Shown: positions 53,526-64,000, counted from the first letter of the stretch. The stretch: 64,000 nucleotides of DNA from Gemmatimonadales bacterium (GCA_019637315.1 JAHBVU010000011.1:7242-71241); one strand, 5' to 3'. Numbers and translations: made by a program. The notes: generated by a model not told the origin, from the sequence alone.

Positions 53526-55031
53526 TCAAGCCGGTCGTCGCGGGGGACGGCTGCCGTCTCGGGGCTTCCGGTCTCGCGGCGCCCGGTCCCGCGATTCGCG
53601 ATCCCGTGAATCACGATCGCGAGAGTCGCTCTCGCGGCTCCGGTCGAGTCGCGCCGCCAGGCGGCGTCCCTTGTACTCGTGGCCGGCGAGCTTCTCGGCG
53701 GCGTTGATCGCGTCGAACTCGCTCGTCATTTCCACGAGTGAGAAGCCATCGCGGAGTTCCAGCCGACCAAGCGTGTCTCGCTTGACGCCGGCGCCGAGGA
53801 CCACGCTGAGCAGCTCGGCCGGGGTTGCACCGTCTTTGCGACCGAGATTGATCCAGACCTTGGGATGGGGCGACGTCAGCGGCGCGCTTGTGGCTGCGGG
53901 CGCGGGTGCTCGGGTCCGGGCTTCGGTCCAGAGGCTCTGGACGGCCACCGCCACCTCGGCGCCGCTCCAGCGGTCCAGCAGCGGGGCGACGGTGGCGTAA
54001 GCTCCCCGATCGATCGGGCCTTCCAGTCGGGAGCGGATGGCGCGCCGATCTTCCTGAATGGCTCGCTCGGCCTGGTCGAGGCCGCCGGGCAGCGTCAGTG
54101 GGTCGATCCGCCCGGCAATCCGGGCAAAGTAGCGCTCGGCGCCCGGGGCAATCAGCACGACGCTCGTGTCGAGGGCGGCCTGGGCGAGCAGTTCCGGCGG
54201 GGGGGCATCGAAAAAGATCGTGGCCGGTCCGGCGGGAATGGCGCCGGCCACCGGTCGGGCGGTGACACCATGCCCGGCGAGTCGTTCGGTCAGCGCCTCG
54301 TGCGAGTCGGCCGACGCGGTCCAGACTTCGACCTCGTCCAGGTTGAGCAGGTCGGCGGCGCGGGCCACGGCGGCGAGCCGGTCATCCCAGCGGACCGCGG
54401 CACCGCGGACCCGGCCGAGCTGCGCCGGCTGGGTCGGGTTGGCCAGCGGCCCCATGGTCGGTGCGCGCCAAGCGTAGCGTTCGGCGAAGGTGGCGGTCCC
54501 TGCCGGGTCGGTCGTCACGACGACCCGCTGGGTTTCCTTCGGCAGGTCGGCAAAGATCGGCACGAAGCCTTCGTCGGACAGCTCCAGTTCAGGCCAGATG
54601 ATGACCACGCCCCGGATCCCATCGGTGCGCAGCTGGCTGCGGCGGAGCAGTTCGGTGGTGGTGGCGAGGGACAGGACCAGCGCGGCAACGCGGCTGGAGG
54701 CGAGGTGGTGCGCGGCCCGACTGGGATTCGGCGCGACGGCGACCGTGATGCCGGCTTGTCGACCGGCCAGCGCAACGGCCTGGCCCCAGGCTTCGAGGGA
54801 CGCGTCCGGGGCGATGACCAGGACCGGTCCCGCCTCGGCCGATTCGGCCGGGCGCCCGAGCAGGGCGGCAAGGACGGGAAGGGTGTAGGCCGGGGCCGGC
54901 GGGGCAGCCAAGACGAGGCTGTTGCCGCGGGCGGCTACGGCGGCGGCGGATGCTACCCCAAAGGCTTCCAGCGACCCGCTCACCGGCGGGTTGGTCAGTT
55001 CGACGTCGGACACGGGTACCTCGATTGTCAA
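53526..55031 (-). CDS. DEAD-box-helicase-like protein with degenerate ATPase/helicase motifs and an intact DbpA-type C-terminal RNA-binding domain plus an RD/RS-rich tail (putative pseudo-helicase)
   Basis: Collinear with DEAD-box proteins, but every ATPase/helicase motif is substituted: Walker A AxTGSGKT becomes [14 protein letters not shown] becomes [13 protein letters not shown] becomes [12 protein letters not shown] becomes WPEL, SAT becomes TTD, and HRIGRTGR is absent. The C-terminus …[47 protein letters not shown]… matches the DbpA/DeaD RNA-binding domain, followed by [14 protein letters not shown]…. Confidence 0.65.
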
Positions 55032-55051
55032 TGAAACGGCTCGTTACGCCC

Positions 55052-55070
55052 GGGTGCGGCCCAACCGCAC
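55052..55070. promoter_or_regulatory. 7-bp inverted repeat (ggtgcgg-cccaa-ccgcacc) in the 129-bp divergent intergenic region between the pseudo-helicase gene and aspC; a TTGACT -35-like hexamer lies at ~55095
   Basis: Read from the DNA. This is the only sizeable non-coding gap in the neighbourhood, so promoter or operator function is inferred only. Confidence 0.2.
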
Positions 55071-55160
55071 CGGTATCAGCATAACACCGTAATCTAACAT
55101 TGACTTCGCTCGGGCAACCCACGAACCTTCGCGAAACCTCAACTTCCCGAGCAAATCCCC

Positions 55161-56387
55161 GTGACGAAGGTGCTTCGCCTCCCCGATCCTGTGTCCAGCA
55201 ATCTGACCCACATCAAAGGTTCCGAAACGGTCGCCATCAACGCCGAGGCGCGCCGACTCCGTGCGTTGGGCAAGGACGTGGTCGACCTGAGCGTCGGGGA
55301 GCCTGACTTCGATACGCCGGCGCCGGTGGCGCAGGCGGGAATCCAGGCGATTCAGAAGGGGCAGACCCGGTATCCGCCCAACGTCGGCATTCCGGAACTA
55401 CGGAACGCCATGGCCACCCATTTGAGCCAGCTCTCGGGAGGCCGCGCGGTCGATCCGGATCGCTTCGTGATCAGCTCGGGGTCGAAGCAATCGCTCTTCA
55501 ACGCCTGCTTTTCGCTGTTCGGGCCGAAAGACAAGGTCCTGATTCCGGCGCCGGCCTGGGTCTCGTATCCCCAGATCGTGCACCTCTCGCGGGCCGAGCC
55601 GGTGATGGTGCCGGGCGAAGTCGAGTGGGGGCTCAAGGTCAGCGTCAAAGATCTCGATCGGCACTTCGACAAGCTCGTGCGCGGCATCATTCTCTGCTCG
55701 CCGTGCAATCCGACCGGGGCGGTCTACACCCTGTCAGAACTTCGTGCCATCGGCGACTGGGCCCGGAAGCACAACATCTGGGTCATCAGCGACGAGATCT
55801 ACCGCCGGATCTACTACGGGCCGGGGGCGGCTCCGTCGTTCTTCGACCTGCCGGACGAGTATCTCGAGAAGACCGTCGTCATCTACGGCGCCAGCAAAGC
55901 GTATGCGATGACCGGCTGGCGGATCGGCGCGGCCTACGCGCCGCCGACCATCGTCAAGGCCATGGCCAACCTGCAGTCGCACACGACGACCGGGGCCAAT
56001 CATCCCGCCCAGGTAGCGGCGGCAGCGGCCTTTTCGGATCCCAAGGTCGAGCAGGAAGTCGTCAAGATGACGGCCGCATTTCGTCGGCGGCGCGATCGGC
56101 TGGTCGAGCGGTTTCGGACCGAAGCGCCCGGCATCGAGTTCGTCGAGCCGCTGGGTGCGTTCTACCTGTTCTTCCGGGTCGACGGCATTCGCCAGAAGCC
56201 GGTGGTGACCGGTACCAAGTTCTGCGAACGCCTGCTCACCGAGCACGGTGTGGCGGCGGTGCCGGGCGCCGCGTTCGGCGACGACCGTTGGATTCGGCTC
56301 TCGTACGCCGCGTCGGACAAGGATCTCGAGAAGGCGATCCATCGGTTGATGCGCTGCATCGCGGAGTTCGAAGCGGGCGGGGTGTGA
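55161..56387 (+). CDS. pyridoxal-phosphate-dependent aminotransferase, class I (aspartate aminotransferase-like)
   Basis: GTG start. …SGSKQS…, PLP-lysine context …YGASKAYAMTGWRIG…, and AAT-I fold collinearity. Confidence 0.9.
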   Translation: MTKVLRLPDPVSSNLTHIKGSETVAINAEARRLRALGKDVVDLSVGEPDFDTPAPVAQAGIQAIQKGQTRYPPNVGIPELRNAMATHLSQLSGGRAVDPDRFVISSGSKQSLFNACFSLFGPKDKVLIPAPAWVSYPQIVHLSRAEPVMVPGEVEWGLKVSVKDLDRHFDKLVRGIILCSPCNPTGAVYTLSELRAIGDWARKHNIWVISDEIYRRIYYGPGAAPSFFDLPDEYLEKTVVIYGASKAYAMTGWRIGAAYAPPTIVKAMANLQSHTTTGANHPAQVAAAAAFSDPKVEQEVVKMTAAFRRRRDRLVERFRTEAPGIEFVEPLGAFYLFFRVDGIRQKPVVTGTKFCERLLTEHGVAAVPGAAFGDDRWIRLSYAASDKDLEKAIHRLMRCIAEFEAGGV

Positions 56388-57313
56388 GTACGCGGCTCCT
56401 CTTTGCACGAGTGCGCCGGGCGATTGAGGGCACCCCCGGCGCCGTGGCGGCCTCGACCATGCCGCCGGCTGTCGAGGGGCGCCCCGATGTCTACCGCCAG
56501 ATCCAGTCGACCGTCGTCGAAGGGTCGACTCTTGCCGTGCATCCGGTGACCCGGAGCCCGTGCCCTGAGCCGATTGCTTTTCTCGACGGCACGCAGCGCT
56601 ACGAAGTCGTCAGTTATGTCGGCACTTCGCCGGTGGTGGCGGCCCTGATTGGCGCCGCGGTCCGCCTCCGGGTCGACGGGCAGTTCCGCACGGTGGCGCA
56701 CGACGGCGGCCGGCTGCTGATCGGTGCGCCGAATGCGCTGGCTGCCTTTGCCGATCGGCTGCCGGATTTTGGCCGGGTCGAGCTCGATCTCGACGGCCCG
56801 GTTCATCCCCTCGAAGAACTCGAGAAGGCGCACCGAGCGGTCGATGACTACCGCAGCGCGCTGGAGTGGCGGGTCGCTGCGCAGTTTCGCCGTGACGATC
56901 CGTCCTGGCTCGTCGTCGACGGTGTGTTACCCCATTTCGATCGGCTCGGGTCTGATCCGCGCGTCATCGGGGTGTCGAAAAGCCACGCGACGCTGCCCTT
57001 CGACGATCCCGAGACCAGTCACCTGTACTTGTCGCTGCCGCAGGGGCACCGGACCAGTGTGTTCCGCCCCGCGACGCCCCACGCGGCACCGGTCGATTCC
57101 TGGGCGCTTCGACTCTGGGCGCACGAGGGCAAAGATCTTTTCCACGGCCTGGTGCGCATCGAAGTCGCGGCCCGCACCGAGCGGGCTGAGCACGCCGAGC
57201 GCGTCTCGGGCTGGCTCCTGGCCGAGCGGGCCCCGATTGCTCGGCCCGACGCGCGGTGGGACCGCTTGCTGTACGGCGTGGCCCAGGTCGAACGCCATTT
57301 GAGGGCCCGATGA
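56384..57313 (+). CDS. NurA-like 5'-3' nuclease (RNase-H-like fold), partner of the HerA-like ATPase
   Basis: GTG start overlapping the aspC stop (GTGA). ~310 aa. Candidate catalytic motifs …IAFLDGTQRYE… (DGS/T-type Asp motif) and …RVIGVSKSHA…. Its stop overlaps the HerA-like start (ATGA). The call rests mainly on size, motifs and position immediately upstream of herA-sbcD-sbcC. Confidence 0.55.
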   Translation: MSTRLLFARVRRAIEGTPGAVAASTMPPAVEGRPDVYRQIQSTVVEGSTLAVHPVTRSPCPEPIAFLDGTQRYEVVSYVGTSPVVAALIGAAVRLRVDGQFRTVAHDGGRLLIGAPNALAAFADRLPDFGRVELDLDGPVHPLEELEKAHRAVDDYRSALEWRVAAQFRRDDPSWLVVDGVLPHFDRLGSDPRVIGVSKSHATLPFDDPETSHLYLSLPQGHRTSVFRPATPHAAPVDSWALRLWAHEGKDLFHGLVRIEVAARTERAEHAERVSGWLLAERAPIARPDARWDRLLYGVAQVERHLRAR

Positions 57314-59223
57314 TCGGACGTGTCGTCGCGACGGAGCTCAAACCGAGTACGCCGCATCAGTTCCTGTTTTGGACCGCGCGAGACACGGCCGTAGGCATCG
57401 GTTCCATCGTCCGGGTCGAGTCGCCCGGGCGATCAGTCTATGGCGTCGTGACGGATGCGTTTGCCTATTCGGACCTGGCAACCCCGATGGACGCGGTCTA
57501 CGGCGCCGACGGCGATCCCAACAGCCCGGTCGAGCCCAGCGAGCGGAGTGAGATCCGCCTGTTCCAGACCGCCGTGCTGCGCCACGAGCCGGAGGAGCCA
57601 CTGCAGGCCGTGCCGCTCGGTGAGGTGCACCTTGCCTCCGACGAAGATGTGGCCTTTGCGCTCAGGATGGACGCCTACATCGGCGGCGACAAGCCGACCG
57701 GCGTGCCCGTCGGCGTCTATGCCGCAGGCGGGCTCGAGGCTCCCGTGTACCTCGACGCCGACTTTCTGCTTGGCCCGGAAGCCGCGCATCTCAACATTAC
57801 GGGGGTGTCCGGTCTGGCCACGAAGACTTCGGCGGTCGAGTTCTTTCTGACCTCGATTTTTCAGCGGTTTCCGCCGCACAAAGGGCGGGTCGCGGCGCTC
57901 TGCTTCAACGTCAAAGGCCCTGACCTGCTGTTTCTCGATCGGCAGGGCACCCTGAACGACCAGGATCGCCACCTGTATGACCGGCTCGGTCTCGAGCCGC
58001 GGCCCTTCGATCGGGTGCGCTACTTTGCGCCGTTCAAGAATGACGGCGTCAATCTCAACACCCTGCGCACCAATCCCGAGCTGATTCCGACCGAGCCGCT
58101 CGTCTGGGGCCTTCGCGAGGTACTGGACTACACCGAAGTGCTGCTCAACCGCGACGACATCGATGCCAAGGCCGACGGCTTCATCGATTTCCTGGCGGAG
58201 CGGGTCGTCGGCAAAGAGTTTAATGACGAGGTGTCGGGGCAGACCTTTGCGGTGCGCAGCTTTGCCGAGCTCGAAGACTTCTTCAAGGCGATCTTCAACT
58301 TTCTCGAAACGACTCGGGGCAGCGAGATCTGGCGCACGCATCATGTTGCCACCATTCGGAAAATCCGCAATCGGCTTGGCAATATCAGCACCCGGTCCAA
58401 GGGCTTGGTGACCGACAACGGTGAGGTCAATGATTTGCCGTGGGGCGAGTTCGGCGACCGGACCGTCTATGTCGTGGACGTCGCGGGTCTCGATCCGCTG
58501 GCGCAGGATCTCGTCTTTGCGCGGATCGTGTCCAAGCTGCGCGAACATCTCGAGCGTCGGGATCTTGGCGTCGAGCACGTCGCGGTCTTCGTCGACGAGC
58601 TCAACAAGTATGCTCCGCAGGAAGGGCACGACACCTACGTTCGGAAGATGTTGCTCGACCTTTCCGAGCGGGGTCGCTATCTCGGCCTGGTGCTCTTCTC
58701 GGCGCAGCAGTTTCGCTCCCAGGTGCACAAGCGGGTCGTCGGCAATGCGGGTACGGCGGTCTACGGCCGGCTCGATGCGGATGAGCTCGCTACGCCGGGG
58801 TACGGGATTCTGTCGCCGGCCATCAAGGCCAAGCTGGCGGCGCTGCCCAAGGGCGAGCTGATGATCCGTCACCCGCATTTTACCCAGCCCATCTTTCTTC
58901 GTTTTCCGCGGCCGTCGGTACTGTCGGGGCGGGAAGGCATCGATCGCTATCCGCCGGAACCCGAGGTGCCGTTCGAGGATGCCGTGGTGCGCCGGCTCCG
59001 GGCCCTCGAACCAGGCTTGCCCGGCAATCGGATCAAGGACCTGATTGCCGGCCGAGCTCAGGATGACGTGGTGCGGGCGCTCCACGCCACCATCCGCAAC
59101 CGGCCAGGCGATGTGGTCGCCTTCTTCGTCAAATGCCTCGGCCGCGAGGTTCGAACCCGGTCGGTGGCACCGACCAACGGCGGGGTTACCCGCCTCAAGA
59201 GCGTCGACGACCCCTACGCCTGA
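57310..59223 (+). CDS. HerA-like hexameric ATPase/helicase (FtsK-HerA superfamily, DUF87-type) with an N-terminal HAS-barrel
   Basis: N-terminus MIGRVVATELKPSTPHQFLFWTARDTAVGIGSIVRVE…SVYGVVTDAF is a HAS-barrel. Walker B …VAVFVDELNKYAP… and a sensor region …LGLVLFSAQQFRSQV… are present. The expected P-loop position reads HLNITGVSGLATKTSAV, which is not a canonical GxxxxGK[ST]. Confidence 0.75.
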   Translation: MIGRVVATELKPSTPHQFLFWTARDTAVGIGSIVRVESPGRSVYGVVTDAFAYSDLATPMDAVYGADGDPNSPVEPSERSEIRLFQTAVLRHEPEEPLQAVPLGEVHLASDEDVAFALRMDAYIGGDKPTGVPVGVYAAGGLEAPVYLDADFLLGPEAAHLNITGVSGLATKTSAVEFFLTSIFQRFPPHKGRVAALCFNVKGPDLLFLDRQGTLNDQDRHLYDRLGLEPRPFDRVRYFAPFKNDGVNLNTLRTNPELIPTEPLVWGLREVLDYTEVLLNRDDIDAKADGFIDFLAERVVGKEFNDEVSGQTFAVRSFAELEDFFKAIFNFLETTRGSEIWRTHHVATIRKIRNRLGNISTRSKGLVTDNGEVNDLPWGEFGDRTVYVVDVAGLDPLAQDLVFARIVSKLREHLERRDLGVEHVAVFVDELNKYAPQEGHDTYVRKMLLDLSERGRYLGLVLFSAQQFRSQVHKRVVGNAGTAVYGRLDADELATPGYGILSPAIKAKLAALPKGELMIRHPHFTQPIFLRFPRPSVLSGREGIDRYPPEPEVPFEDAVVRRLRALEPGLPGNRIKDLIAGRAQDDVVRALHATIRNRPGDVVAFFVKCLGREVRTRSVAPTNGGVTRLKSVDDPYA

Positions 59224-59320
59224 CCTGTGGTGGAGTCGCCCCCGCACGAACCCGCCGGTCGCCGACCTCGAACCCCTCGGACGAGGTGACCGGGGCGCGA
59301 CTCTTGGGCTAGATTAGACC

Positions 59321-60499
59321 GTGCTGCTCGCTCACCTTGCCGATCTGCATCTCGGCTACCGCCAGTATTACCGTCAGACCGCCGCGGGCATCAACCAGCG
59401 CGAGGCCGACGTCGCGCGCGCGTTCGTCCAGGCGGTCGATCAAGTCATTGCCAAGCAGCCTGACGTCATTGTCGTCGCGGGCGACCTGTTCCACGCGGTG
59501 CGCCCGACCAACCAGGCCATCATTCACTGCTTCCGGCAGTTCCAGCGGATTCGAGAGGCGCTTCCCGCTGCAAAGGTCCTGATCGCGGCCGGCAACCACG
59601 ACACGCCTCGGGCCACCGAAACCGGTTCGATCCTCAAGCTCTTTGCCGGTCTCGGGATCGAGGTGGCGACGGACGACGCGGCCATCGTGCGGTATCCCGA
59701 CCTCGATCTGGCGGTCAAGCTGGTGCCGCACGCCGCGCTGGTAGCCGACGACCGGCCGCGTCTCGATCCCGAGGGTGACGAGCGCTACCAGGTTCTGGTG
59801 CTCCACGGCGACACCCCCGATCTCGACCCGCTCGACCGCTGGTGGGCCGAGCCGGGCGGGGCGGCGGTCGATCCGAGCGAGTTTGCCGACCCCCGTTGGA
59901 ACTACGTCGCGCTCGGTCACTATCACGTCATGCTGAAGGTTGGCCCGCACGCCTGGTATTCGGGGGCGCTCGACTATGTCACCCCGAACCCCTGGGGCGA
60001 ACTGGCGAAGCAGAAGGCGCACAAGGTTCCGGCCAAAGGGTGGCTCCTGGTCGACCTCGAAACCCGCCAAGTCATGCCGCAGTACCTCGAGTCAGCCAGG
60101 CGGCTGATCGACCTGCCACCGATCGAGGCGCGGGACCTCGCCGCGTCGGAGATCGACCGAGCTATCCAGGAGAGGCTGGCCAGTATCCGGGGCGGGTATG
60201 CCGAGCAGCTGGTTCGCCTGGTTGTGCGGGATGTGCCCCGGTATGTCGCTCGCGAGCTGGATCATGCGGCGATTCGCACCGCCAAGGCCACCGCGCTCCA
60301 TTTCCGTCTCGATCTGCGGCGACCGGAAGTGCATCGGACGGTCGGGGTTGGTGCGCCTGGAGCGCGCCAGACGCTGACGGACGTGCTGAGGGGCTTCCTG
60401 GCTCGGCGCCCTTTGCCTGAGCGGGTCGACCGCGATGCCTTCGTGACTCGCGGGACGGCCATGCTCGATGCGGTTTCGGCGGCGGCGTCGGAGGGCTGA
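59321..60499 (+). CDS. sbcD: Mre11/SbcD-family DNA-repair nuclease (calcineurin-like phosphoesterase)
   Basis: GTG start. Phosphoesterase motifs I DLHLG, II GDLFH, III GNHD, IV LHGD, V GHYH. Confidence 0.9.
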   Translation: MLLAHLADLHLGYRQYYRQTAAGINQREADVARAFVQAVDQVIAKQPDVIVVAGDLFHAVRPTNQAIIHCFRQFQRIREALPAAKVLIAAGNHDTPRATETGSILKLFAGLGIEVATDDAAIVRYPDLDLAVKLVPHAALVADDRPRLDPEGDERYQVLVLHGDTPDLDPLDRWWAEPGGAAVDPSEFADPRWNYVALGHYHVMLKVGPHAWYSGALDYVTPNPWGELAKQKAHKVPAKGWLLVDLETRQVMPQYLESARRLIDLPPIEARDLAASEIDRAIQERLASIRGGYAEQLVRLVVRDVPRYVARELDHAAIRTAKATALHFRLDLRRPEVHRTVGVGAPGARQTLTDVLRGFLARRPLPERVDRDAFVTRGTAMLDAVSAAASEG

Positions 60500-62928
60500 T
60501 GCAGATCCGGCGCCTCCGTCTGCTCAACTTCCGGCAGCATGCCGACACCACGCTCGCGTTCGAGTCCGGGCTGACCGGGATCATCGGACCGAACGGCGCC
60601 GGCAAGTCCACCCTGCTCGAGGCGGTGGCCTGGGCGATGTACGGTACCCAGGCGGCCCGCGGCACCCGCGACAGCATCCGGCGTCGCAATGCACCGCCGC
60701 GGTCCCGGGTCGAGGTCGAGCTCGAGATTGCCATCGGAGCCCAGGTCTATCGGGTGGTGCGGTCGCTGCAGACGGCGGCATTGTACCAGGACGGGGGTCC
60801 CTCGCCGATTGCCAACAGCGGCGCGGCCGTCACCGACAAGATCACCCGCTTGCTGGGGATGACGCGGGACGAATTCTTCAACACCTACTTCACGGGTCAG
60901 AAGGAACTGGCGATCATGGCGTCGATGTCGGCGCCGGAGCGGGCCAAGTTCCTGAGCCGGGTGCTGGGCTACGAACGTCTGGCCATGGTTCAGCTCAAGT
61001 TGCGCGACGAGCGAACCGGTCTCCGGGGAGCGTTAGGCGTGGCCGAGTCTGCGCTGGGCGACCTGGCGGAGCTCGACCGCGAGGCGGCGGAGGTCGAAGC
61101 GCGGGTCGCCGCCGCGGATACCGCGCTGGGCACAGCCGGCGCCCGACGCGAGACGGCCGATGCCGTGCTGGCCTCGCTGGCGCCGGAATGGGAAGAGGCT
61201 CAGCGCCGTCGTGATGAAGTCGCCGCGATCCAGACCGACCTGAGCATTGCCGAGCATGCGGCAGTCGAGGCCAAGCGTGCCTTCGAAGCAATCGACCTCG
61301 ATATGGCGGATGCCATTGCCGCCAGCACCAAGCGGGAAGAGCTGGCCCCTCGTCTGGCGGATTGGGACGCGCTGGTGGCCCGACGTGACGGGCTCGAACA
61401 GGCTGCGTCGGCGTTTTCCGAGCGGCGGGCCATGGATGCTCAGGCGGCTGAGGTTCGCAAGCTCCTGGCCGGTCAGGAGACGCGGCTGAGCGAACTGCCC
61501 GATCAGGCCCGCCTCGATGCGGCTCGGGCGGAGCTGGCGATTCTGCAGGAGAGCGCCCACCAGGCTGCGCACACGCTCGAAGAGCAGCGGACCGAGTGGG
61601 TCCGCGAAAAGCAGGACGCCGAGACGATGCGGAAAGGGCTGCTCAACGAATACGAAGAAGTGGCGGAGCAGAAAGCGCGTCTCGAGGCGGCCGGCGCAGC
61701 CGGGATCTGCCCGACCTGCGGTAAGCCGCTCGGTGCGGAGTATGGCGGCGTGCTCGACGATCTGGAAGGGCGCCTGGCCGACATCCGCGGCGACGGCAAG
61801 CACTATCGGGCCCGGATCGATCAGCTCTCGAGCGAGCCCGAGGGTGTTGTGGCGGCCAAACGGGTGCTGGAGCAGGCCGAGGCCGATCTCAAACGTCTGA
61901 CCGCGGGAGTCGGGCGGATGACGGAGGCGGTGGCGGAGCGGGTCCGGATCGAGGCGGCTCTGGTCGCGCAGCGGGAACGGCTGGCCGACCTCGATGCCCG
62001 TCTCGCGGCGACGCCGTCGTCGTACGACGAAACCGAACACGTTCGTGTGCGCGCTCGTGTTGCCGAGCTGACGCCGCTGCGGGATGAACTGATGCGGATC
62101 GCGGCCCGGGCGGATCGTGCCCCCGAGCTGCTCCAGAAGGCTACTGCGGCCGAGCAGCACTTGACGCGGCTCGAAGCAACTGCTCAGGCGCTGCGGGACA
62201 AGCTCTCCGCGCTGGGATGGTCCGTCGAGGCGTTTGCCCTGCTCAAAGAGACGTTCCTGGCAGCCGAGCGCGAGGCGCGTGACGCCCACCTGGCTTTGGT
62301 ACGGGCGCAAGCCGAGCATGCCGCTGCGCTGGAGCAGCGAGCCTCGCTGTCACGGCGGCGGGAGGAGCGTGATCGGCGTCTTGCCGAGGCCGAGCGTTTG
62401 CGGAGCGACCTGGCCATGAACCAGGAGTTGGATCGGGCCTTCAGTGAGCTGCGGGATGACCTCAATGCGGCCTTGCGTCCCGACCTGGCGGATGCGGCCT
62501 CGACCCTGCTGCGAGATCTCACCAATGGCCGGTACACGGACCTGGAACTGGACGAGGACTACCTCGCCACCATCGTGGACGACGGCGAGCCCAAACAGGT
62601 CATTTCAGGCGGTGAAGAGGATGTCACCAACCTGGCCTTGCGGCTCGCCATCAGTCAGATGATTGCGGAGCGGGCGGGGCAACCGTTTTCGCTGCTGATC
62701 CTCGATGAGGTGTTTGGTTCGCTCGATGAGGAGCGTCGCAACGCCGTGATGGATCTGCTGCGCGGCCTGGCCGATCGGTTCCCCCAAGTGATTCTGATTA
62801 CGCATATCGAGTCGGTGCGCGACAGCTTTGATCGGATTGTTCGGATCGACTACGATGTCGAGTCCGGGGTTGCCTCCGCGCGGGAGGAAGATCCGCAGCG
62901 AGGCGGGATGTCGCATGCCGCGGCGTGA
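60499..62928 (+). CDS. sbcC: Rad50/SbcC-family SMC-like ATPase with a CxxC zinc hook
   Basis: The ATG overlaps the sbcD stop (TGATG). N-terminal Walker A GPNGAGKST, a ~600-aa coiled coil with the central hook CPTCGKPL, and a C-terminal signature/Walker B/D-loop …LLILDEVFGSLDEER…. Confidence 0.9.
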   Translation: MQIRRLRLLNFRQHADTTLAFESGLTGIIGPNGAGKSTLLEAVAWAMYGTQAARGTRDSIRRRNAPPRSRVEVELEIAIGAQVYRVVRSLQTAALYQDGGPSPIANSGAAVTDKITRLLGMTRDEFFNTYFTGQKELAIMASMSAPERAKFLSRVLGYERLAMVQLKLRDERTGLRGALGVAESALGDLAELDREAAEVEARVAAADTALGTAGARRETADAVLASLAPEWEEAQRRRDEVAAIQTDLSIAEHAAVEAKRAFEAIDLDMADAIAASTKREELAPRLADWDALVARRDGLEQAASAFSERRAMDAQAAEVRKLLAGQETRLSELPDQARLDAARAELAILQESAHQAAHTLEEQRTEWVREKQDAETMRKGLLNEYEEVAEQKARLEAAGAAGICPTCGKPLGAEYGGVLDDLEGRLADIRGDGKHYRARIDQLSSEPEGVVAAKRVLEQAEADLKRLTAGVGRMTEAVAERVRIEAALVAQRERLADLDARLAATPSSYDETEHVRVRARVAELTPLRDELMRIAARADRAPELLQKATAAEQHLTRLEATAQALRDKLSALGWSVEAFALLKETFLAAEREARDAHLALVRAQAEHAAALEQRASLSRRREERDRRLAEAERLRSDLAMNQELDRAFSELRDDLNAALRPDLADAASTLLRDLTNGRYTDLELDEDYLATIVDDGEPKQVISGGEEDVTNLALRLAISQMIAERAGQPFSLLILDEVFGSLDEERRNAVMDLLRGLADRFPQVILITHIESVRDSFDRIVRIDYDVESGVASAREEDPQRGGMSHAAA

Positions 62929-63868
62929 GCGCCTGACCGGTCCGATACCGATCGGGGTCGAGGGGATCGGTGATCTCAACCAGCTGTTTTCGGATGCGTT
63001 TACCGATCGCTACCACCGGGATGGGATGATGGGGGTCCGGGTTCCTCCGCTCAATCCGGCCATCTGGCGTTACGCCCTCGCGGTGGCGGGGGATGGTGCC
63101 ATGCAGTGGCGTGACCAGTCGGGAGCGCTGGCTGCGTTCAACCTTGCCCGGGTGTCGGGAACGGAAGGGTGGATGGGTCCGCTGGCGGTGCGTTCGGATT
63201 TGCAGCGTGGTGGCGTGGGTCGTCTGATCGTGCGGGCGGGCATCGACTATCTGCGCGAGCGCAGCTGCCGAGTCATCGGGCTCGAAACCATGCCGCGCAC
63301 CGTCGAGAATATCGGTTTCTACAGTGGACTCGGCTTTCGCCCCGGCCATCTCACGATTTCGATGCAGCTGGCCGTTCCGCGCGGGGCTGGTGTCCCGGCG
63401 CTGCGGAGCGGAGACCTTGGTGATCGGGACCTGTGGCGGCCGCAGGGTCGCCGCCTGCTCGATCGGCTCGCCCCGGGGGTCGACTTCACCCGGGAAATCG
63501 ACGAGACGCTGACACAGGGCATCGGTGATCTGTCCGTCGTCGCGGACAGCGGCGAGTGGCTGGCGTTTGCGCTCTGGCACGATGTGCCCCTGGCCCAGGG
63601 GCGCCCGGTCGAAGAGATTCGGATCCTCAAGGTTGCCGCGGTCGATCCGGCCGCCTTCTGCCGGGTCATCGACGGTGTCATGGTTGCAGCAACGGCTCGG
63701 GGCATCCATCGATTAGGGGTGCGGTGTCAGACGGCGCAGGCTGCGGCCTATGAGGCCCTGCTCGACCTTGGATTCCGAGCCCATTGGACCGATCTCCGGA
63801 TGTCGCTCCGCGACTTGCCTGAACAGCGGCCGGCTGAAGGAATCGTACTTTCGAACTGGGAAATCTGA
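62915..63868 (+). CDS. GNAT-family N-acetyltransferase (two GNAT-like halves)
   Basis: The ATG at 62915 overlaps the 3' end of sbcC by 14 nt. Acetyl-CoA-binding-like …LQRGGVGRLIVRAGIDYL… (Q/RxxGxG/A motif) and a second GNAT-like half (…EEIRILKVAAVDP…). Confidence 0.7.
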   Translation: MPRRERLTGPIPIGVEGIGDLNQLFSDAFTDRYHRDGMMGVRVPPLNPAIWRYALAVAGDGAMQWRDQSGALAAFNLARVSGTEGWMGPLAVRSDLQRGGVGRLIVRAGIDYLRERSCRVIGLETMPRTVENIGFYSGLGFRPGHLTISMQLAVPRGAGVPALRSGDLGDRDLWRPQGRRLLDRLAPGVDFTREIDETLTQGIGDLSVVADSGEWLAFALWHDVPLAQGRPVEEIRILKVAAVDPAAFCRVIDGVMVAATARGIHRLGVRCQTAQAAAYEALLDLGFRAHWTDLRMSLRDLPEQRPAEGIVLSNWEI

Positions 63869-63881
63869 GCGACAGGGCTGC

Positions 63882-64000
63882 TCAACGAACCGTGAGACCT
63901 ACGGTGAACTGGTAGAGTGAGGCAATCACGTCGTCGACCCGTCCGGTGCGGAGGGTGATGTCGCCGATGGCGGCCACCAGCGCACCAGCATTGAAGGTGA
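63882..64000 (-). CDS. 3' end of an unidentified minus-strand gene that continues beyond the window
   Basis: The reverse frame reads …TFNAGALVAAIGDITLRTGRVDDVIASLYQFTVGLTVR* with the stop at 63884-63882, convergent with the GNAT gene. Too short to identify. Confidence 0.3.
   Translation of the reverse strand, partial: TFNAGALVAAIGDITLRTGRVDDVIASLYQFTVGLTVR

Follow-up and report, generated by a model that had tools for sequence, protein, structure and literature searches.

Bacterial-type NurA-HerA genes beside sbcCD and an overlapping tandem-GNAT gene in a probable DNA-end-processing locus of Gemmatimonadota

The genes for four protein families, NurA, HerA, Mre11, and Rad50, cluster in thermophilic archaea (PMC4663267). 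In the literature searched, accounts of bacterial NurA-HerA come from Deinococcus-Thermus and from Thermotoga (TM1739); the pair is said to occur "only in a few bacteria", and any connection with sbcCD to have "remained to be uncovered" (PMC9960219, PMC4663267, PMC12977600); the solved NurA-HerA complex of Deinococcus radiodurans is the biochemical precedent (PMC9960219). Here, we analyzed a 64,000-nt stretch (the window; GCA_019637315.1 JAHBVU010000011.1:7242-71241) of a Gemmatimonadales metagenome-assembled genome (MAG), in which a nurA-like gene and herA are followed by sbcD, sbcC, and a gene encoding a tandem-GNAT protein. On balance, we favor reading these genes as a locus for DNA-end processing that Gemmatimonadota carry on the chromosome and inherit vertically, and that is composed of two adjacent co-directional units.

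An earlier note on the same DNA had called the locus archaeal-style. The four families are indeed co-located and co-directional, as in the archaeal operons of Sulfolobus and Pyrococcus and in a low-GC bacterium described below (L085), but NurA and HerA are of bacterial type and the gene order differs, being nurA-herA-sbcD-sbcC in the window and reportedly herA-mre11-rad50-nurA in archaea, an arrangement that Constantinesco et al. are said to have described in 2004. Unlike the archaeal operon, the window locus probably forms two transcription units, has relatives that carry inserted unrelated genes, and adds an invariantly coupled tandem GNAT. The four families together were known from archaea; what is probably new is a bacterial-type NurA-HerA beside SbcCD, in a different order, probably in two units, and with a coupled tandem GNAT. 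A literature search on NurA or HerA with Gemmatimonad* found nothing relevant, although a mention in older genome surveys is possible.

Results

NurA and HerA of Predicted Bacterial Type

The NurA-like protein, which is 100% identical to an NCBI entry named "hypothetical protein [Gemmatimonadales bacterium]", matched no model in Pfam (including NurA, PF09376), NCBIfam, or PADLOC, and searches of PDB sequences with the single protein or with a narrow profile (A1) found nothing. Among its close relatives, only one of 41 matched Pfam NurA, and only at E = 0.091. An AlphaFold2 (AF2) model built on 41 homologs (pLDDT 85, pTM 0.83) nevertheless adopted an RNase H-like fold, and the top four chains in Foldseek were all NurA entries: D. 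radiodurans NurA (DrNurA) from the HerA-NurA complex (7f6d_G, 1.8e-12), Thermotoga maritima TM1739 (1zup_A/B, 2e-11), and Sulfolobus solfataricus NurA (SsoNurA; 2ygk_A, 2e-7), with EndoV and Argonaute ranking behind.

An exhaustive profile search placed the protein in a family of 832 representative clusters at 50% identity. Homology to solved NurAs was seen only because the profile was widened with distant representatives: profile A3, made from 54 of the 832 cluster representatives (25 to 49% identity), matched TM1739 (1zup, 1.6e-9) and DrNurA (7f6d_H, 1.8e-7). Five residues, D68 (FLDGTQ), E161, D179 (VVDG), K199 (SKSH), and Y297 (LLYG), were invariant or at least 90% conserved in the family, with the order and spacing of SsoNurA D58, E116, D133, K202, and Y298 (PMC3326311). 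D68, E161, and D179, plus K199 and Y297, are hence the predicted catalytic residues, and the D/E/D/K/Y pattern of archaeal NurA is conserved in the window protein. Because the fold matches, the A3 profile matches, and the conserved residues agree, sequence and model together identify the product of 56384-57313 as a divergent bacterial-type NurA. This had been the least secure of the gene assignments, and one that the earlier note had named as able to refute its reading; structure and transitive profile searching bear it out. Of the checks it had proposed, PF09376 failed on the window protein itself but matched 10 of the 54 more distant family members (best E 3.8e-5), and structure prediction returned an RNase H-like fold whose nearest structural neighbors were the solved NurAs.

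For HerA, phmmer against PDB gave a sole match, D. radiodurans HerA (drHerA; 7f6d_B, 4.6e-38), over residues 2-243 and 387-545, which takes in the ATPase core as well as the N-terminal region. The Walker A (GVSGLATKTS, 165-174) and Walker B (VFVDEL, 426-431) motifs are near-identical to the aligned drHerA motifs. The N terminus, which aligns to that of drHerA, scored 23.1 bits against a cut-off of 25.2 for the Pfam HAS-barrel, and some orthologs carry PF09378 in precomputed annotation. No ATPase-domain model of Pfam or NCBIfam, including DUF87/HerA, was matched at E<=0.01; the HerA-like identity proposed earlier was thus borne out by the drHerA match over both regions, and not by the Pfam check suggested for it. 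Across the Gemmatimonadales loci L001-L080, HerA identity was 70 to 97%, compared with 44 to 73% for NurA and 46 to 91% for SbcC, indicating very unequal constraint on the NurA and HerA partners.

By sequence and model, therefore, NurA and HerA appear closest to the D. radiodurans and T. maritima proteins and not to archaeal ones. SsoNurA was only the third structural match, no archaeal HerA was found in the PDB sequence search at E<=1, and the archaeal-type NurA and HerA expected of a recently transferred archaeal operon were not encountered, the closest relatives being bacterial. The D. radiodurans pair (PDB 7F6D; DR_0836/DR_0837), which includes the only solved sequence relative of the window HerA, shares with the window a nurA gene preceding herA in one operon and the Walker A variant G-x-S-G-x-A-T-K-T-S. 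It differs in several respects. NurA identity between the two is only ~15-17%, too low for pairwise search, and the window protein also escapes the Pfam HMM; the N terminus of DrNurA forms a beta-strand and pin (PMC9960219), where a helix is predicted in the window protein. Furthermore, Deinococcus NurA-HerA has no established link to sbcCD in the literature searched, whereas the genes are adjacent in the window and in L085.

SbcD and SbcC Resemble Archaeal Mre11 and Rad50

All five calcineurin-type phosphoesterase motifs attributed to SbcD in the earlier note were present (DLHLG 8-12, GDLF 54-57, GNHD 91-94, LVLHG 159-163, and GHYH 199-202), along with Pfam Metallophos (4.8e-11). The best NCBIfam model, Mre11_Sulfo, scored 71 bits against a cut-off of 500, and TIGR00619 (sbcd) 61.7 against 77.65; judged by these scores, SbcD lies within the superfamily but in none of the curated NCBIfam equivalogs. 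Among PDB sequences, SbcD was most similar to Mre11 of Methanocaldococcus jannaschii (~1e-14) and Pyrococcus furiosus (~5e-11), followed by T. maritima (4e-5) and SbcD (4e-4).

SbcC matched the Pfam families SMC_N (1e-21), AAA_23, and SbcC_Walker_B, and has a split ABC ATPase head with Walker A (GPNGAGKS, 30-37), SGGE (703-706), LLILDE (732-737), and ITH (767-769) motifs. The predicted zinc hook was confirmed as CPTC at residues 404-407 (nt 61708-61719), the exact middle of the 809-aa protein. Its best NCBIfam models were archaeal Rad50 (189 bits), and matches in PDB were again led by M. jannaschii (7.8e-28) and P. furiosus (2.6e-24) Rad50, ahead of T. maritima (7.7e-22) and E. coli SbcC (4.4e-9). 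In sequence, then, SbcD and SbcC appear to have their nearest relatives in archaeal Mre11/Rad50, with the T. maritima proteins more distant and E. coli SbcCD much more so, a likeness that the window shares with the archaeal operon. With E. coli SbcCD and T. maritima Mre11-Rad50 the window shares a two-gene sbcD-sbcC unit whose stop and start codons overlap, the phosphoesterase motifs, and a coiled-coil ABC ATPase bearing a CxxC zinc hook. However, E. coli SbcC is much longer (1048 aa) and only distantly similar, and the window sbcCD differs in being preceded by nurA-herA and followed by an overlapping GNAT gene.

Junction Constancy Defines Two Units

Window genes were taken from the open reading frame (ORF) listing and from direct reading of the junction sequence, which confirmed the previously proposed gene set, coordinates, and start/stop overlaps throughout. 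All six genes from aspC to the GNAT gene are co-directional (Table 1), and the chosen start codons match the N termini of homologs called independently in other assemblies. The aspC stop codon (TGA, 56385-87) falls in a 4-nt overlap (GTGA) with nurA, whose GTG start is at 56384, the herA ATG at 57310 overlaps the nurA TGA at 57311-13 (ATGA), and sbcD and sbcC share 1 nt at 60499 (TGATG). A 97-nt gap (59224-59320) separates herA from sbcD, and the GNAT gene overlaps sbcC by 14 nt (62915-62928). Overlaps of 4 nt are frequent in compact high-GC genomes and, alone, are not more than chance; more can be learned from the constancy of each junction between species.

One genome per GTDB species was scanned, giving 288 loci with relatives of the NurA-like protein, of which 80 (L001-L080) were kept. 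All 80 were labelled Gemmatimonadota save one, a "Bacillota bacterium" (L069, JBLMWC010000079.1) with typical Gemmatimonadales synteny and identities, whose MAG is probably misbinned or mislabelled. The order aspC-nurA-herA-sbcD-sbcC-GNAT was retained in every sufficiently long locus of the 80 species, and synteny broke right after the GNAT gene. herA was next to or near nurA in the window and in all Gemmatimonadota loci that were long enough. Of 13 distant contexts sampled, 12 showed the same; in the remaining one, L081, a 4-kb contig, hypF lies downstream instead.

Two junctions were rigid. sbcD and sbcC overlapped in 46/46 clean calls, by 1 nt in 45, and sbcC and the GNAT gene overlapped in 41/41 loci, by 14, 11, or 17 nt in 39 and by more in two, with a recurrent junction motif ATGCCGCG..TGA. 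The others varied: aspC and nurA overlapped in 26/74 loci and were more than 300 nt apart in 33/74, and gaps of more than 300 nt were found between nurA and herA in 17/73 loci and between herA and sbcD in 16/50. Given these differences in constancy and the genes inserted at the looser junctions, the stable units are nurA...herA, loosely linked, and sbcD-sbcC-GNAT, rigidly linked. That an overlap marks membership of the same machine was rejected, since the aminotransferase gene aspC overlaps nurA by the same 4 nt and such an overlap does not identify the members of one machine; aspC, which opens the upstream unit, is probably a co-transcribed neighbor and not a repair component.

The insertions fall into subgroups. 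A co-directional gene for a 581-aa GlpD-like FAD-dependent oxidoreductase separates nurA from herA (+~1.7 kb) in L029 (10840-12585) and is common to a Gemmatimonadales subgroup that also includes L027, L036, L040, L044, L046, L051, L061, L062, L064, L074, and L075. In another subgroup (L006, 12596-14356; also L011, L012, L014, and L019), herA and sbcD are separated by a gene, likewise co-directional, for a ~586-aa AMP-dependent acyl-CoA synthetase/ligase (+~1.6 kb).

A Conserved Promoter-Like Element Precedes sbcD

An internal promoter had been suggested for the 97-nt gap, and comparison between species lends this support. Relative to the two closest relatives, the 5' part of the gap diverges while the last ~40 nt before the sbcD GTG are invariant. 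In the window, GTGACC (59286-59291) is followed by an 18-nt spacer, TAGATT (59310-59315), 5 nt, and the GTG. Across 49 distinct sbcD upstream regions, the consensus was CTTG..N16-18..gAcATT/TAGATT, with the CTTG-type element at ~-35 and the hexamer at -12..-7. The mean best -35/-10 score of these regions was 6.45/12 compared with 5.0 in shuffles (maximum 5.43 of 200), a comparison that is indicative and not a probability because the regions are related by descent. No Shine-Dalgarno sequence was visible before sbcD in the window or in the 49 regions. An element 5 nt before the GTG and the lack of a Shine-Dalgarno sequence predict that the sbcD-sbcC-GNAT mRNA is leaderless or nearly so. Since a conserved promoter-like block precedes sbcD, a single five-gene transcript, as the earlier note had implied, is unlikely, and the locus looks instead like two transcription units. 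A generic sigma-70 scan of 54900-64000 at a threshold of 9/12 returned 0 promoters, and a terminator scan of the same interval returned four terminator-like sites, not above shuffles. A structured RNA element in the 97-nt gap was considered and rejected (RNA fold z -0.73 vs shuffles).

The Four Repair Genes Recur Together in an Unrelated Lineage

We also inspected the contexts of 13 distant NurA-family members. Four deeper loci (L082, L083, L090, and L091), whose NurA is ~30-37% identical, kept the tdk-DbpA-aspC synteny and all had herA, sbcD-sbcC, and an adjacent GNAT gene in the same order, with sbcC-to-GNAT spacings of 61, 4, 2, and -1 nt, respectively, and more genes inserted between the repair genes. 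Together with the long-enough Gemmatimonadota loci, they bear on the neighborhood survey suggested earlier, nurA-herA-sbcCD-GNAT co-occurring in both sets.

L085 (10001-16672; Logan SRR26782606, 36% GC) encodes nurA-herA-sbcD-sbcC with gaps of 31, 0, and -1 nt and wholly different flanks (uvrB, HD-GYP, and transglutaminase). Its HerA is 51% identical to that of the window and its SbcD and SbcC 32%. A tight operon with other flanks indicates that the four-gene association is more than inherited synteny, and these gene contexts favor the view that the four repair genes are functionally linked. L085 has no GNAT; two proteins with no Pfam match, of 432 and 304 aa, stand in its place. Among the contexts inspected, the GNAT is specific to Gemmatimonadota-type loci.

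In five distant contexts the nurA-herA pair stood alone; one of these, L088, is from Fimbriimonadales (Armatimonadota), and other cluster members bear the same names. Of the remaining contexts, one contig ends just past herA and another, a short one, lacks a herA gene after nurA.

Several further genes accompany these loci. An ORF of 286-310 aa with no Pfam match, which has no counterpart in the window, lies between herA and sbcD in L082 (13020-13946), L083 (15408-16268), and L090 (13599-14531), and could be a further component of the module. A 92-aa AsnC-type regulator, absent from the window, is encoded between aspC and nurA in L082 (8517-8795), L083 (9208-9486), L090 (9726-10004), and L091 (9723-10001), overlaps the nurA start in the latter two, and is a candidate local regulator. 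In L088 (8875-12936, GCA_019186925.1), as in L084 and L086, nurA-herA is followed by a conserved, uncharacterized gene of ~265 aa that runs in the opposite direction and by a gene for a small ABC ATPase. A histone-deacetylase-family gene ends 16 nt before nurA in L088 and not in L084, which may be coincidence.

The Last Gene Encodes a Predicted Tandem GNAT

The N-terminal domain of the last product matched Pfam Acetyltransf_1 (2.9e-9, residues 71-141), carries an acetyl-CoA motif (QRGGVG, 97-102), and is closest by sequence to RimI and Naa30; the C-terminal domain is GNAT-like with no Pfam match, and ends in SNWEI, invariant among aligned homologs. The top Foldseek matches of the AF2 model (pLDDT 92.9) were tandem GNATs, namely 3tt2, 3ddd, 7q3a (MAB_4324), VipF, N-myristoyltransferase (NMT), and MshD, with full-length alignments (TM 0.6-0.75). 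Fold and sequence thus identify a tandem-GNAT acyltransferase, as the earlier note had recognized.

With the known proteins (3TT2 from Sphaerobacter, 3DDD from Pyrococcus, MAB_4324, Legionella VipF, MshD, and NMT), it shares a two-GNAT fold in a ~300-aa chain, a single recognizable acetyl-CoA motif, and an invariant C-terminal residue. In NMT, the C-terminal carboxylate takes part in catalysis. Identity to the window protein is, however, only 9 to 15%, with no evident orthology. To our knowledge, none of these tandem GNATs is linked to SbcCD or Rad50, and a literature search combining SbcC with GNAT found nothing relevant. The protein had already been noted as no described part of the NurA-HerA-SbcCD module; its linkage to sbcC is tighter than was then apparent, overlapping in all 41 related loci, and this overlap suggests that GNAT translation is coupled to that of SbcC.

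Table 1. Features of the locus in window coordinates
Feature	Position	Strand	Basis
aspC-like class I/II aminotransferase	55161-56387	+	Pfam Aminotran_1_2 3.9e-74
nurA-like (putative divergent bacterial-type NurA nuclease, 309 aa)	56384-57313	+	Fold and profile homology
herA (predicted bacterial-type ATPase/translocase, 637 aa)	57310-59223	+	D. radiodurans HerA 4.6e-38
Promoter-like element in herA-sbcD gap	59286-59315	+	Conserved block and position-specific consensus
sbcD/Mre11 nuclease, 392 aa	59321-60499	+	Metallophos 4.8e-11, five motifs
sbcC/Rad50 ABC ATPase, 809 aa	60499-62928	+	SMC_N 1e-21, zinc hook
Predicted tandem-GNAT acyltransferase, 317 aa	62915-63868	+	Acetyltransf_1 2.9e-9, model fold

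The neighbors of the locus are housekeeping genes (gcvH, coaE, tdk, and aspC), with no mobile-element or defense-island genes among them. A conserved upstream neighbor on the minus strand (53526-55031) encodes a 501-aa protein related to DbpA-type RNA-binding/helicase-like proteins in related loci; it has a low-complexity C-terminal tail rich in Arg, Asp, and Ser, and its identity is only 27 to 90% across the clade.

Discussion

From the protein identities, motifs, gene linkage, and promoter-like element described above, we infer a working model for a DNA-end-processing locus. The upstream unit, (aspC-)nurA-herA, would supply NurA, a nuclease of the bacterial type, and HerA, a ring-shaped translocase, and the downstream unit, sbcD-sbcC-GNAT, would probably be expressed from its own promoter with a leaderless start. 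By homology to D. radiodurans, a NurA2-HerA6 assembly should form and thread a DNA end through the HerA pore, with NurA cutting the unwound strands. If the two units cooperate, the zinc-hook SbcCD complex, driven by ATP, would first recognize and open or clip blocked or hairpin ends; HerA-NurA would then most likely carry out long-range 5' resection to leave a 3' tail for RecA, as proposed for archaeal Mre11-Rad50 and HerA-NurA. The GNAT, made in step with SbcC, would most likely use acetyl-CoA on a pathway protein (SbcC, SbcD, or an end-binding partner) or on a regulator of its own.

Several observations weigh against this model. The unrelated upstream block gcvH-coaE-tdk-DbpA-like-aspC is as conserved as the repair genes (~60/80 loci), unrelated metabolic genes split nurA from herA and herA from sbcD in many relatives, and in Armatimonadota and other lineages the NurA-HerA subfamily occurs as a lone pair, sbcCD being absent from the surrounding 10 kb. 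Operons often carry GNATs as passengers, and no evidence ties this one to a particular substrate. The in vivo role of NurA-HerA is itself disputed, deletion in Deinococcus or Thermus having had little effect on damage resistance or even improved it (PMC9960219), and recent archaeal work questions end resection and suggests degradation of foreign DNA (PMC12977600).

These observations bear on another account, to which we give an appreciable but clearly minority chance. In it, nothing but inherited synteny keeps the genes together, NurA-HerA works independently of SbcCD, and the GNAT and aspC are unrelated passengers for which a shared transcript is merely economical; the GNAT might, for instance, acetylate small molecules or ribosomal proteins. 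As the unrelated flanks are equally conserved, gene order within the phylum is weak functional evidence, and its use as proof of function was down-weighted on the strength of that control. The synteny reaches clearly unrelated genes, aspC overlaps nurA like a true operon partner, metabolic genes sit between the repair genes in many species, and NurA-HerA stands alone in other phyla; moreover, the N-terminal GNAT domain is most similar to RimI, and the low-GC four-gene operon of L085 does without the GNAT. The claim of the earlier note that tight coupling implies one machine is not supported, or is overstated, in view of the shared 4-nt aspC overlap, the split junctions, and the conserved upstream block. 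On the other hand, an organism of 36% GC whose flanking genes differ has an independent, tight nurA-herA-sbcD-sbcC operon, sbcC and the GNAT gene overlap without exception (41/41) while the aspC/nurA junction varies, and synteny stops directly after the GNAT gene. The four families cluster in thermophilic archaea, too (PMC4663267).

A role in defense, in which the locus, or at least NurA-HerA, would degrade linear double-stranded DNA of phages or plasmids with SbcCD and the GNAT as accessory or regulatory parts, seems improbable to us. HerA does pair with Sir2 or DUF4297 nucleases in bacterial defense, and HerA-NurA of Thermococcus kodakarensis degrades both strands, for which its authors propose an antiviral role (PMC12977600). 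Weak PADLOC matches were also obtained, HerA to mad8 (1.8e-7) and HerA, and SbcC to mad3, LmuB, and PbeC. However, these reflect generic P-loop/ABC similarity, and the NurA-like and GNAT proteins had no PADLOC match. Unlike patchy mobile defense islands, the locus holds a fixed chromosomal position among housekeeping genes phylum-wide and is vertically inherited, with no modification, sensor, or toxin genes nearby. It likewise differs from TdpAB, a defense pair of HerA-like and NurA-like proteins (PDB 8WET), whose structural score was below those of bona fide NurAs, in having no DNA-modification partner gene and a housekeeping chromosomal context. The fixed housekeeping context and the lack of defense-model matches make foreign-DNA degradation less likely here than end processing.

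Within the end-processing model, the tandem GNAT could be a dedicated, phylum-specific regulatory subunit of SbcCD, its synthesis coupled to that of SbcC, that acetylates SbcC, SbcD, HerA-NurA, or a DNA-end-binding partner. We put this forward as speculative and rather unlikely. If true, acetyl-CoA status would control a combined SbcCD and NurA-HerA end-resection machine, and the locus would be the first in bacteria to parallel the four-protein system of archaea, with a new fifth component added.

The analysis points to a divergent NurA-HerA subfamily missed by standard HMMs, which, with its 832 clusters, extends over Gemmatimonadota, Armatimonadota, and other lineages. Its presence beside Mre11/Rad50-like SbcCD in two compositionally unrelated lineages provides genomic evidence for the cooperation assumed from archaea. 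Gemmatimonas species are probably culturable and manipulable hosts in which a repair or a defense role of HerA-NurA could be decided, and the invariant overlap of the GNAT gene with sbcC offers a concrete starting point for testing whether acetylation controls a complex of the Rad50 family.

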